DNA of 6,950 nucleotides from a virus. Its lineage: Duplodnaviria; Heunggongvirae; Uroviricota; Caudoviricetes. The stretch is from the IMG/VR virus record IMGVR_UViG_3300029851_000103, one strand, 5' to 3'. The translations under genes and the position numbers were made by a program. Each line of letters begins with the position of its first letter. Position 1 is the stretch's first letter. The notes under the pieces are model-generated. The model saw nothing but the letters and a program-made list of their open reading frames with translations. It made no database searches and had not been told where the DNA came from. Of this stretch, positions 1 through 2,981 are shown one piece after another.

Positions 1-224
1 CCGCCATAACGACCACTTTCCAGATCGTTCACTTCCACTTTGTTTTTCAGCTTATTATCAACTTCAGTTTTTGTGTATCTGGTGCTGATATCCTGCTTTG
101 CACTGGCCATATCAGTCTGAAGCGTTGATACTTTTCCGTTAATAGAGGAAATATCTTCCTTTGCTTTACTAACATCTCCCTTCAGCGTGGTGATGTCTCC
201 CGGAATTACTGTTGATGTAGCCAT
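1..224 (-). CDS. Hypothetical protein, N-terminal 74 codons only (runs off left edge). Begins MATSTVIPGDITTLKGDVSKAKEDISSINGKVSTLQTDMASAKQDIS...; predicted coiled-coil-like, possibly tail-fibre-associated.
   Basis: Hand translation of the minus strand from ATG at 222..224 is open to position 2 with no stop. A GAGG Shine-Dalgarno sits 7 nt upstream and overlaps the TGA stop of ORF93; only 9 nt separate the two genes. Not in the ORF track, presumably because it lacks a stop inside the window. Family not recognised. Confidence 0.45.
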   Translation of the reverse strand, partial: MATSTVIPGDITTLKGDVSKAKEDISSINGKVSTLQTDMASAKQDISTRYTKTEVDNKLKNKVEVNDLESGRYG

Positions 225-233
225 TTCTCTACC

Positions 234-515
234 TCACATCCAGCCACGAAGTTGATGCTCAACAGCAACCGCGTATTCATCGAATAATGACGATATTTGC
301 GTATCCTTAATAATGCGCACGTTTACAAAATATCCATCTTCCTTAACACATACCGGTTCGCCATCTTCAGTCAGCTCTCCGGTTTCTTTGTACACGTTAC
401 CTATCACATCAATCAGAATATCATCCTGCATCGACTCGTCATTATAATAGCCAATACTTCCCATAAAGGCCGAAAAGTCGGCCCTGTCGGCAAATTTGAG
501 TGTTAAATCTTTCAT
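234..515 (-). CDS. Small acidic hypothetical protein (93 aa), translationally coupled to the side tail fibre gene. Function unknown; candidate fibre-associated accessory protein or chaperone.
   Basis: ORF-track ORF 234..515. Its ATG (plus-strand cat 513..515) overlaps the stf stop (plus-strand tta 515..517) as TAATG on the coding strand. By my count 19 Asp+Glu versus 8 Lys+Arg (net about -11), one Cys. No resemblance to lambda Tfa that I can recognise. Confidence 0.55.
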   Translation of the reverse strand: MKDLTLKFADRADFSAFMGSIGYYNDESMQDDILIDVIGNVYKETGELTEDGEPVCVKEDGYFVNVRIIKDTQISSLFDEYAVAVEHQLRGWM

Positions 516-2917
516 TAGATTGACTCCCCCATCTGAGCATCAGTCAATGCCTTGTGCCAAATACGCAGATTTCGAACGTGTCCAAATAGGTGACGGTTGC
601 CGGATGATGATTGACCACCAATATTAATGAAGCCTCCTGTATATTTGTGTTTTTTATAAGGAGAAACTACCTTAGCACCAATATTACCGTTAACCACAAC
701 ACACAATTCTCGACTTTCTGTGAATCTAAAGCCGATAATGCTTTTTCTCTCTGGTCGTTCTATAACGCTTTTATATTCTATTTTAGTGCCTTTACCATTT
801 GTAATGATTGCGCGTGCTCCCAAAGATGTATACCCCAAATACATATAACTTTCATCTGCAATTTCAGTTGTATCTCCCGTAGTGGAAATATTAAGAATAC
901 GTGCGCTACCTTCTTTGTTTGGCGATTCATCCCAATTGGTATTAACTTCTGCTAATGAACTAATAGCGGGATTGCACCAATTTAGAGAAATGGGGACCGT
1001 TACAATATCGCTGGCGCGTGTTACAGGGGATGCGCCTGTTATAATAAACGATGAAGCGCATGCCCCACCTTCAACTTGAGGGGTCGCAATATAAATATAA
1101 TCATCCGCGCCAGTGCCCACTCCTTTTGCCGGGGCATACTGAACCATTCCACCTATCATATTTTCTGTATCAAGTGCCTTAATTGTCGCCTCAAAAAAGA
1201 TCCATTTGCTTGCTTCATCTTTAACAGCCCTTGCAGTAATGCGATTAGCGGCACCACCCGTCTTATCAATAGATAAATCTGTCGTATTTAAGTAAGCGTC
1301 ACCTAAGAATGTGTAGGTAGAACCATCATAGTTTTCAAATCGTAATCGGCATCTTAAATTTGGAGTGCCACTTTGCACCCTGCATGATATGGTTACATAC
1401 TTTTCTCCGCCTGTTACATCAAAACCTTTACTGCCGGAAACGGTTACTATGTTAATCGCTGAAATTTGCCCTACCATTTCTGGTTTTAATGTAAATTTTG
1501 CGTACTGGAATCCGAAATCATCTACACCTGATGCACTTAAGATCATATTTGACGACTTGTTCCATTTAGTCGGATTTGTTGAATTGATTAGCAGGTTAGT
1601 TCTTTGCCCCTCAATAAGCAGGCCATCACGTTCAAATCGTGGCTCGTCAATGGCAGCCTCTGTCAGCACACCAGATTTATTAATGTAAGTTGCTTTCGAT
1701 GCGCGTTTAAACTTTACAATCTTGTCGCCAGGCATTGTTATTTCATCGTCGCCAATAACAATTTTTTTATATGATGGCGAAAAGCCCGTAATCATATCCA
1801 GTGAATCATTAAACGGTATCCACACATCGGGCAACGGCTGCAAAACTTGTTTATACGGCTCCGCTGCCTGGCTTGCATACTCTCTGGCTGCGTCTTCACT
1901 TGCTTTAGCTGCTGTCTGGCTTGCTGCCGATGCTTGCGCCGAGTTCGCCGCCGCAGTCTCGCTCGCCTTTGCGTTGGTTTCACTGGTTTTTGCTGCTTTT
2001 TGACTGTTAGCTGATGCAGTGGCAGAAGCAGCCGCCGCGCTTGCAGAACTGGCTGCGGCACTCTCGCTTTGGGCCGCTGCATCCTGACTGCTTTTCGCCG
2101 CAGTTTCACTGGCTTTGGCATTCGTTTCGCTGGTCTTCGCTGCCGTCTGGCTGGACTTTGCGTTAGTTTCACTCGTCTTCGCAGCTTTCTGGCTGTTAGC
2201 CGCAGCAGTTGCTGATCCAGCTGCTGAAGTCGCAGAACCGGCTGCCGCGCTCTCGCTTTGGGCTGCTGCAACCTGGCTGTTTTTTGCCGCAGTTTCACTG
2301 GCTTTGGCATTCGTTTCGCTGGTTTTCGCTGCCGTCTGGCTGGACTTTGCGTTGGTTTCGCTCGTCTTTGCGGCTGTCTCGCTATTTTTCGCGTTGGTTT
2401 CTGATTTTTTGGCTGCTGTCGCGGAGTTTGCCGATGCAGTCTTTGAGGTCGCTGCCGCCTGTGCACTATTAGCTGCATTCGTTTCTGAGGTTTTCGCCGC
2501 GTTCTTCGATGATGCCGCTGCAGTTTCGGATTTCTTTGCCGCCGCTGCGCTCTGAGAGGCGGCTTCAGCGTTGCGTGCCGCTTCTTCCACCATTTCCTCA
2601 AAACGACGCAATGCCTCCGGCATGACATCATCTTCCGTCATGGCACCGAGAAAATCATTCAGCGTCCCCGGCTTAGAATCTTCATACACGGTGATGGTCC
2701 CGGCATGTGAAGGCGAAAAACCTTCAACCAGCAGGATAACGCTGTACTGGCCATACTCAACATCCATACTGTAACGCCCGGCTTCATCCGGATTTTCTGA
2801 GGCCAGCGTGTTCACTACCACCGTGGTGCTGTTACGTTTTGCTTTCAGCTGGATTGAGCAGTTCTGTACCGGTTTTCCTGTGCCGTCTTTCAGTACACCT
2901 GAAATCTTTACTGCCAT
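515..2917 (-). CDS. stf: Side tail fibre protein (lambda Stf-like N-terminus; Ala/Ser/Thr/Lys-rich repeat shaft; C-terminal LamG/ConA-like lectin-type receptor-binding domain).
   Basis: 800-aa ORF. N-terminus MAVKISGVLKDGTGKPVQNC...GRYSMDVEYGQYSVIL...HAGTITVYED matches the lambda side-tail-fibre N-terminal domain as I recall it. Residues ~110-330 are repetitive (KTSETNAKSSQTAAKTSETNAKASETAAK...). C-terminus ...HLFGHVRNLRIWHKALTDAQMGESI resembles the terminal strand signature of LamG-like jelly-roll domains. A G-rich SD (GGGGGG) lies just upstream of the ATG. Confidence 0.88.
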   Translation of the reverse strand: MAVKISGVLKDGTGKPVQNCSIQLKAKRNSTTVVVNTLASENPDEAGRYSMDVEYGQYSVILLVEGFSPSHAGTITVYEDSKPGTLNDFLGAMTEDDVMPEALRRFEEMVEEAARNAEAASQSAAAAKKSETAAASSKNAAKTSETNAANSAQAAATSKTASANSATAAKKSETNAKNSETAAKTSETNAKSSQTAAKTSETNAKASETAAKNSQVAAAQSESAAAGSATSAAGSATAAANSQKAAKTSETNAKSSQTAAKTSETNAKASETAAKSSQDAAAQSESAAASSASAAAASATASANSQKAAKTSETNAKASETAAANSAQASAASQTAAKASEDAAREYASQAAEPYKQVLQPLPDVWIPFNDSLDMITGFSPSYKKIVIGDDEITMPGDKIVKFKRASKATYINKSGVLTEAAIDEPRFERDGLLIEGQRTNLLINSTNPTKWNKSSNMILSASGVDDFGFQYAKFTLKPEMVGQISAINIVTVSGSKGFDVTGGEKYVTISCRVQSGTPNLRCRLRFENYDGSTYTFLGDAYLNTTDLSIDKTGGAANRITARAVKDEASKWIFFEATIKALDTENMIGGMVQYAPAKGVGTGADDYIYIATPQVEGGACASSFIITGASPVTRASDIVTVPISLNWCNPAISSLAEVNTNWDESPNKEGSARILNISTTGDTTEIADESYMYLGYTSLGARAIITNGKGTKIEYKSVIERPERKSIIGFRFTESRELCVVVNGNIGAKVVSPYKKHKYTGGFINIGGQSSSGNRHLFGHVRNLRIWHKALTDAQMGESI
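1912..2478 (-). repeat. Intragenic tandem repeat, unit 189 bp (63 codons), about 3 copies: two near-identical over their first ~80-100 bp plus a more degenerate upstream copy. Encodes the Ala/Ser/Thr/Lys-rich shaft of Stf.
   Basis: The plus-strand string cagtttcactggctttggcattcgtttcgctgg occurs at 2101 and again at 2290 (offset 189). The protein shows two 63-aa units each starting KTSETNAKSSQTAAKTSETNAKASETAAK. and ending ANSQKAA. Region 1912..2100 aligns more loosely. Confidence 0.8.
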
Positions 2918-2928
2918 ATTCCCCCCAC

Positions 2929-2955
2929 AAAAAAGCCCACCTGAACCGGCGGGCT
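2929..2955 (-). terminator. Putative intrinsic (rho-independent) terminator downstream of lom, immediately upstream of the stf start.
   Basis: Minus-strand transcript: 8-bp stem (AGCCCGCC / GGUGGGCU, including one G-U wobble that exists only on the minus-strand RNA), 6-nt loop GGUUCA, then a run of 6 U (plus-strand A-run 2929..2934). Lies 26 nt after the lom stop. Confidence 0.45.
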
Positions 2956-2981
2956 GTCATAACACTGTGTTACCTGGCTAA

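Follow-up and report, generated by a model that had tools for sequence, protein, structure and literature searches.

Lateral tail fibres built from two proteins, as well as branched ones, are known in T5-like phages (PMC4728585, PMC10713586). Second fibres of the LtfB and IrisVonRoten type attach to the proximal fibre, and proximal fibres bearing lectin-like domains have also been described (PMC4728585, PMC10713586, PMC11990801). Within the Drexlerviridae, fibres have been reported that combine a coiled coil, a T5-like tip and an intramolecular chaperone (PMC11990801), and the same literature includes cap-like chaperones and a folded-back LtfB that has been considered a possible sensor (PMC11990801, PMC10713586).

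The gene studied here is the third of a side-fibre block (stf, ORF93, third gene) in a 6,950-nt stretch of DNA from a caudoviricete virus (IMG/VR record IMGVR_UViG_3300029851_000103), which is referred to below as the window. Public annotations of its family conflict, the protein being named 'lateral tail fiber chaperone', 'chaperone of endosialidase' or 'tail fiber protein'. No virion proteomics, adsorption or functional data have been found in the literature for its orthologues in T1-like phages or for ECOR prophages, the papers on engineered lambda Stf hold nothing on the third gene, and the SH6 paper covers only a fibre of the cis type.

A third gene coupled to stf and ORF93

The third gene begins with an ATG at 224..222 on the minus strand and remains open for 74 codons, with no stop, up to the edge of the window (Table 1). 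Nine nucleotides (233..225) separate this start from the TGA of ORF93 (236..234). Lys, Asp, Ser and Thr make up 33 of the 74 residues, and the gene lies in an AT-rich region, with a GC content of 0.36-0.45 over positions 1-1800 as against 0.52-0.66 in J. A first-pass annotation had described most of this: a minus-strand ORF from 222..224 with a Shine-Dalgarno sequence overlapping the ORF93 stop, an N-terminus rich in these four residues with a heptad-like pattern, an AT-rich module, and a tight operon-like block with stf and ORF93. The start, the ribosome-binding site and the translated peptide have been recovered identically here, the residue counts and the GC values agree with the description, the heptads have withstood a shuffle test (see below), and the three genes are translationally coupled. 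The ORF is a real gene, the start of a 234-aa prophage tail-fibre protein.

Table 1. Features of the side-fibre block in the window.
Feature	Position	Strand	Description	Basis
5' part (74 codons) of the third fibre gene, 234 aa in full (WP_000235980.1-type, 'tail fiber domain-containing protein')	1..224	-		
Predicted coiled-coil stalk, residues 10-49	78..197	-	Five and a half heptads	Shuffle test, AF2 helix, one-heptad variant, trimeric-stalk matches
Conserved N-terminal module, residues 1-32 (MATSTVIPGDITTLKGDVSK...)	129..224	-	Common to the 346-aa allele and T1-like homologues; putative docking/adaptor segment	
Shine-Dalgarno-like GAGGT	231..235	-	Overlaps the ORF93 stop; 6 nt upstream of the third-gene ATG	Read directly
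ORF93 (phrog_1361), second cassette gene	234..515	-	Start codon and stf stop overlap in TAATG	
stf, side tail fibre, 800 aa	515..2917	-	phage_tail_N anchor, Ala/Ser/Thr-rich repeat shaft, hypervariable distal half	

E. coli chromosomes carry loci 100% identical to the window, as revealed by megablast. The full-length sequence of the third gene used throughout this work comes from one of these identical loci, that of E. coli FDAARGOS_1259 (hereafter L001), and not from the window. In L001 the gene extends to 234 aa and ends at a normal stop codon, so that the leftward extension recommended in the first-pass annotation has yielded neither an early stop nor a frameshift of the kind expected from a non-coding remnant. 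The L001 prophage adjoins the trp operon and holds, in this order, J, lom, stf, ORF93 and the gene for the 234-aa protein (WP_000235980.1), followed by a gene for a 97-aa membrane protein, tfa fragments, a methyltransferase gene on the opposite strand and the end of the prophage. The regions encoding the tip, the putative cleavage site at Ser116 and the Peptidase_S74 (S74) chaperone domain lie beyond the window edge, at L001 10201-10681, which explains why this domain had escaped the first-pass annotation.

Of 5426 complete E. coli genomes, 740 (~14%) contain the full-length 234-aa allele; one of them is BL21(DE3), where it sits in the Qin prophage. The third gene is intact in every one of 83 related loci (83/83), with a length of 227-241 aa. 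Its dN/dS amounts to 0.16 for the whole gene and, by region, to 0.25 (stalk), 0.13 (tip) and 0.115 (chaperone domain). This value, together with the intactness of all the loci, makes a pseudogene or a decaying remnant unlikely. In the 241-aa variant (loci L070 and L162), seven residues (EEVGEIA) are duplicated within the chaperone domain.

The same data bear on the possibility that the gene is a vestige, namely the 3' remainder of an ancestral single-gene fibre that was severed by the insertion of a lectin-type Stf head and ORF93, and that has been kept as a recombination flank. That all three sub-regions show low dN/dS and that insertions and deletions keep the heptad register is hardly what such a relic would exhibit, and the start codon, the ribosome-binding site and the N-terminal peptide are conserved between lambdoid and T1-like versions at ~60% identity. 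A vestigial origin would agree with the alignment of the entire 234-aa protein to the last 240 positions of the 1385-position fibre profile PHROG 3299, with the presence of S74 in cis within one fibre gene in T1 and SH6-type phages (PMC5238451), and with the downstream tfa fragments, which indicate repeated replacement of cassettes. With both sets of observations considered, we regard a vestige as very unlikely.

In two strains the stf gene of the cassette is interrupted by an insertion sequence, IS1 in SCU-172 (locus H1) and IS3 in BL21(DE3) (locus L004). ORF93, the 234-aa gene and the gene for the 97-aa membrane protein (ORF97) are intact downstream of both interruptions.

N-terminal module and coiled-coil stalk

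The 234-aa protein is organised into an N-terminal peptide (residues 1-9), a heptad stalk (~10-70), a tip (71-115) and a chaperone domain (116-234). The conserved peptide at its N-terminus reads MATSTVIP.DI..LK. Residues 1-32 are common to a 346-aa allele of the same gene, to an intermediate form (P0296) and to the N-termini of phrog_4563 and phrog_19752, which match the 234-aa protein over these residues only; the bodies that follow differ.

Several lines of evidence point to a coiled coil. Within residues 10-49, hydrophobic residues occupy 11 of the 12 a/d positions (I11, L14, V18, A21, I25, I28, V32, L35, M39, A42 and I46) and a single one of the 28 other positions, a contrast reached in 0 of 20000 shuffles. 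The AF2 model of the monomer contains a confident helix at 11-47, and the stalk, of a type seen in trimeric stalks, matches YadA_stalk and LPP. Length variants of the gene differ by whole heptads, the 227-aa variant being without exactly one. A comparison of the 74-residue N-terminus with 1.8 billion representatives has returned mostly generic trimeric coiled-coil shafts, a result that supports the stalk and identifies no partner. Sequence pattern and model together demonstrate for residues 10-49 a predicted heptad coiled coil such as trimeric stalks contain, and the suspicion voiced in the first-pass annotation of a fibrous or coiled-coil protein was well founded. Its term 'fibritin-like' has to be restricted to an architectural analogy, with no fibritin family found among the Pfam matches (E <= 0.1).

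Chaperone domain and tip

Residues 116-172 match the Pfam family PF13884 (Peptidase_S74, 'chaperone of endosialidase') with 27.2 bits against a cut-off of 22, covering profile positions 1-57 of 58. An alignment of 32 homologues, the most distant of them at 27% identity, shows no change at Ser116, Lys121, Glu125 and ~17 further positions of the domain, and Ser116 and Lys121 are also invariant in an alignment of 18 homologues. In a profile search of the PDB, the family profile of the third gene matches the chaperone end of LtfA from phage DT57C. The AF2 model, with a mean pLDDT of 69, is confident for residues 129-233, where means over blocks of 10 residues are mostly 80-92 and lower at both ends. 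Foldseek places this part of the model closest to the ICA domain of MyRF (7dc3, E 5e-5), followed by 3gud and the endosialidase chaperone 3gw6. It has the predicted fold of an intramolecular chaperone, which closes with a long helix at the C-terminus. Profile, conservation and predicted fold thus concur in identifying residues 116-234 as a predicted Peptidase_S74 intramolecular chaperone with a Ser116/Lys121 dyad. The catalytic role of this S-x4-K dyad is presumably the one known from endoNF and MyRF, and the 234-aa protein would be cleaved before Ser116. P0202, a 116-aa database representative of the protein, ends exactly at Ser116; this is most likely the result of truncation at the end of a contig.

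In longer relatives, the region homologous to residues 50-234 is found at the C-terminus of fibres that carry Gp34_trimer or Phage_tail_fib domains at the N-terminus.

The tip is short (residues 71-115, ~45 residues). Residues 76-115 are not reliably placed in the AF2 model of the monomer, as would be expected if this region folds only in the trimer. Within the 234-aa allele the tip is 93-100% identical, compared with 35-100% for the distal half of Stf, and it does not diversify; diversity appears only between alleles of the slot. Receptor-binding tips that determine specificity do not usually evolve by strong conservation. A tiny conserved mature tip suits a structural or modulating function no less than it suits the binding of a receptor.

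This conservation is what lends weight to a reading in which the mature trimer would bind the lateral fibre and not a receptor, acting as a strut, a plug, a transient cap or an environmental sensor of fibre deployment, much as fibritin whiskers or chaperone caps do. The minimal tip with its low dN/dS and the fibritin-like layout of coiled coil plus C-terminal folding nucleus agree with such a modulator, for which the cap-like chaperones and the LtfB sensor offer precedents (PMC11990801, PMC10713586). Nevertheless, the alternative allele that occupies the same slot has a large and different body that fits a binding role better, and a modulator or cap seems unlikely to us.

Conservation of the block and variation of Stf

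The distal half of Stf, which starts at approximately residue 340, contains a GTA-spike-fibre-like domain, and its C-terminal end may be lectin-like. For ORF93, a confident α/β model has been obtained that has no recognisable fold relative; the protein may serve as the adaptor or as a chaperone specific to the Stf head. Across 80 prophage loci from IMG/VR, the third-gene protein is 93-100% identical and ORF97 90-100%, whereas identities for the distal half of Stf span 35-100%; ORF93 is 78-100% identical in those loci in which a homologue is detectable. At the loci with the most divergent Stf, a very divergent 89-aa homologue takes the place of ORF93 and the third-gene protein is unchanged; ORF93 tends to track the distal allele of stf, though not strictly. 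Stf accordingly carries the diversifying head, and the third gene is its constant companion.

The distal half of Stf (window ~518-1900 on the minus strand, residues ~340-800) is a recombination hot spot with at least six allele classes at 35-76% identity, flanked by two conserved regions, the Ala-rich shaft and the ORF93/234/97 block. Its junctions bear the conserved motifs PLPDVWIPFNDSL and GGQ..G.RHLFGH.RN.RIWHKAL. In RefSeq, stf (L001 7284-9284) is labelled a pseudogene 'missing C-terminus'. The ORF is intact and encodes 800 aa (L001 7284-9686), and the label is probably an annotation artefact of the hypervariable distal half. The Stf shaft includes a tandem repeat (window 1949-2383) with a period of 189 nt (63 aa) and 2.3 copies, which gives rise to spurious long ORFs in other frames, among them one of 279 aa at 1792..2631 (-) and one of 146 aa at 2115..2555 (+).

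The first-pass annotation had asked whether the block of stf, ORF93 and the third gene is conserved as a unit in other prophages. It is, and the unit extends to T1-like phages. In the T1-like phage KarlJaspers the gene order is the same: the distal half of the lateral fibre is 41% identical to Stf from approximately residue 340; next come a 92-aa ORF with 52% identity to ORF93 and a 225-aa protein with 61% identity to the third-gene product. An orthologue of the third gene is carried by ~44 records of Drexlerviridae, the virulent T1-like phages.

No promoter- or terminator-like signal has been detected among stf, ORF93, the third gene and ORF97. A strong terminator-like hairpin, with a 13-bp stem followed by a T run, is located between lom and stf (window 2936-2965 on the minus strand, L001 7236-7265). 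With this hairpin upstream, expression of the fibre block would depend on antitermination during late transcription or on a separate promoter, and none has been detected.

The distribution of the block also decides against another proposal of the first-pass annotation, that the third gene might be cargo carried downstream of the fibre genes. As a lysogenic-conversion gene (moron) unrelated to the virion, it would sit near the prophage end, where cargo is common, and true cargo is indeed found slightly further downstream, in the form of the methyltransferase in L001 and sitABCD in phage 21. However, its domains are of the fibre type, its translation is coupled to that of the fibre genes, it has no detected promoter or terminator of its own, no defence-system matches have been obtained for it, and its orthologues reside in virulent phages. 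Cargo is accordingly the least credible reading, one that we consider extremely improbable and have rejected.

An exchangeable and dispensable position

The position after ORF93 is occupied by different genes in different genomes. Phage records contain homologues of ORF93 in 181 cases and the third-gene protein in 63. In phage 2G7b, a gene for a 345-aa 'tail fiber protein' starts 9 nt after ORF93, and its product shares with the 234-aa protein residues 1-32 only (66% identity). Beyond residue 32, this 346-aa allele has a different body and an S74 domain of its own. Its body has no NCBIfam match, and its sole PDB match is the S74 end. On their common N-terminus the 234-aa allele bears a minimal tip and the 346-aa allele a far larger central region unrelated to it. 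The intermediate P0296 has the adaptor and long heptads, then a central region resembling the one in the 346-aa allele, and S74. In the 80 IMG/VR loci with an ORF93 of the window type, all 78 readable third genes begin with M-A-(T/I)-S-T-V-I-P; 38 of them have the 345-347-aa form and ~30 the 227-241-aa form. The 346-aa allele is found at full length in 431 complete E. coli genomes (~8%).

In phage 21 and in >39 IMG/VR prophage loci there is no third gene at all, stf and the ORF93 homologue being followed directly by ORF97. The distal halves of Stf are colinear between loci with the third gene (the window, L083, 2G7b and KarlJaspers) and phage 21, which is without it. An extra docking domain in Stf dedicated to the third gene has also been considered; the colinearity leaves no candidate for it. 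As far as gene content can tell, the third-gene slot is exchangeable and dispensable, and it behaves as an exchangeable receptor-binding position would.

These loci also bear on a further reading, in which the product would be a trans-acting assembly chaperone and no part of the virion, with its S74 domain or its coiled coil aiding Stf, or Stf and ORF93, to fold or trimerise. The gene directly follows a fibre gene, as genes for fibre chaperones usually do; it is conserved next to a hypervariable Stf distal half; the tip of its own protein, even before cleavage, is tiny; and GenBank annotations speak of a chaperone, the BASEL one being 'putative lateral tail fiber chaperone'. This label stems from the Pfam name and not from experiment, and no text supporting it has been found in the literature. 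S74 domains act in cis, on the stretch of chain that immediately precedes them, and in the third-gene protein both that stretch and the cleavage dyad are conserved. Moreover, a colinear Stf and an ORF93 homologue occur in phage 21 and the >39 prophage loci in the absence of the gene, the slot also takes the 346-aa allele with its large body, and neither similarity of the Tfa, gp38 or gp57 type nor a match to a chaperone family of Pfam, NCBIfam or PHROG has been found. Judging from these genomes, the third gene is not an obligatory Stf chaperone, and a purely trans-acting role is unlikely.

ORF97 (phrog_1443), a predicted membrane protein of 97 aa, is encoded 10 nt after the 234-aa gene (L001 10692-10985). 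It is 97-98% identical in three types of locus, those with the 234-aa allele, those with the 346-aa allele and phage 21, and has not been found in KarlJaspers, the only T1-like locus examined for it. It is preceded by a strong AAGGAGG ribosome-binding site and has no match in Pfam, NCBIfam or PADLOC. It could have a membrane function related to lysogeny, such as exclusion. Downstream of the cassette (L001 11005-12539; L004 8029-8827) there are tfa fragments, a DUF4376 fragment and the gene for a SAM-dependent methyltransferase on the opposite strand, and in the Qin prophage of BL21(DE3) also the invertase gene pinQ. These elements look like what is left of older stf/tfa cassettes, possibly invertible ones, that the present module has displaced.

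Proposed role of the 234-aa protein

According to these data, it is postulated that the 234-aa protein is an accessory tail-fibre subunit that trimerises, cleaves itself and docks via its N-terminus, a proposal that we hold to be reasonably probable. Fibre or receptor-binding subunits attached by the N-terminus have as their standard architecture a conserved N-terminus followed by an exchangeable body and, at the C-terminus, a self-cleaving chaperone, and it is this combination that underlies the proposal, along with the established domain identities, conservation and modularity of the gene. The second fibre that the first-pass annotation offered among its options is the best-supported reading.

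In this model, three chains would be set in register by the C-terminal chaperone domain, after which the coiled-coil stalk and the short tip would fold. The chaperone would then cut itself off before Ser116, leaving a trimer of ~115-residue chains. This mature stub would enter the virion by docking with its conserved N-terminal peptide on Stf and/or ORF93 in the lateral fibre, of which it would form a small second subunit or a branch. The third gene belongs to a mobile side-fibre cassette made up of the distal half of stf, ORF93 and the 234-aa gene.

A bolder version of the model can be conceived for the slot as a whole. Interchangeable self-cleaving mini-fibres would dock in a plug-and-play manner via M-A-T-x-T-x-I-P-x-D-I on a lectin-headed Stf, perhaps through ORF93, producing branched side fibres of dual specificity in both temperate lambdoid and virulent T1-like phages. 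In a more unusual form of it, the chaperone of the 234-aa allele would work in trans, as an assembly nucleus or a removable cap for Stf heads, an idea prompted by a tip whose small size and strong conservation do not suit a receptor binder. We consider this bolder version quite unlikely.

If the docking model is true, lambdoid side fibres of a common type would be assemblies of two or three proteins, instead of a single Stf, with a bearing on the prediction of host range for prophages and on lambda-derived delivery particles equipped with chimeric Stf. The conserved 32-residue N-terminus would then offer a natural and portable tag by which small receptor-binding modules could be attached and exchanged, and database labels ranging from 'hypothetical protein' to 'chaperone' would be corrected.

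Comparison with known systems

The 234-aa protein is a member of the S74-chaperone fibre proteins in a compact stand-alone form, from a family already annotated and uncharacterised, and the finding in itself is ordinary phage fibre modularity. Its closest counterparts are the T1-like orthologues, gp35 of KarlJaspers/Bas06 ('putative lateral tail fiber chaperone') and the proteins of SECphi27, XY3 and JK16 ('chaperone of endosialidase'). No experiment has been found behind their chaperone annotation. These orthologues are 61% identical over the full length, share the N-terminal peptide, the heptad stalk, the tip and S74, and are likewise encoded after a lateral fibre gene and an ORF93 homologue. 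They differ in being located beside replication genes, and not after J and lom, in the number of heptads and, in KarlJaspers, in having no ORF97.

T5 pb1, DT57C LtfA and JakobBernoulli Gp36 have in common with the 234-aa protein a C-terminal Ser-Lys S74 domain placed after a coiled coil, in a fibre that is trimeric in their case and would be so in that of the 234-aa protein (PMC11990801). However, these are proteins of 550-1400 aa with an anchor of their own and a sizeable receptor-binding tip, whereas the third-gene product is only 234 aa long, lacks an anchor domain and carries a tip of ~45 residues. LtfB of DT57C and the distal T-shaped fibres of IrisVonRoten resemble it in another respect, since they are encoded by a separate gene beside the main fibre and have a conserved N-terminus and a variable distal part. 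Attachment of LtfB has been shown genetically, while that of the far smaller third-gene protein is inferred only.

The chaperone of endosialidase (K1F/endoNF) and the ICA domain of MyRF belong to the same family and share the predicted fold and the S-x4-K dyad, but their upstream substrate is a triple beta-helix or tailspike stalk, in place of which the 234-aa protein has a heptad coiled coil and a short tip. T4 fibritin (wac) would be similar in its trimeric heptad coiled coil and in folding that is nucleated from the C-terminus, and different in that it has no sequence or family relation and in that its foldon, of ~30 residues, is retained and not cleaved off. Finally, lambda Tfa, Mu U and T4 gp38/gp57A are also encoded directly after a fibre gene, but have no homology to the third gene; the true tfa remnants of L001 lie further downstream of it.
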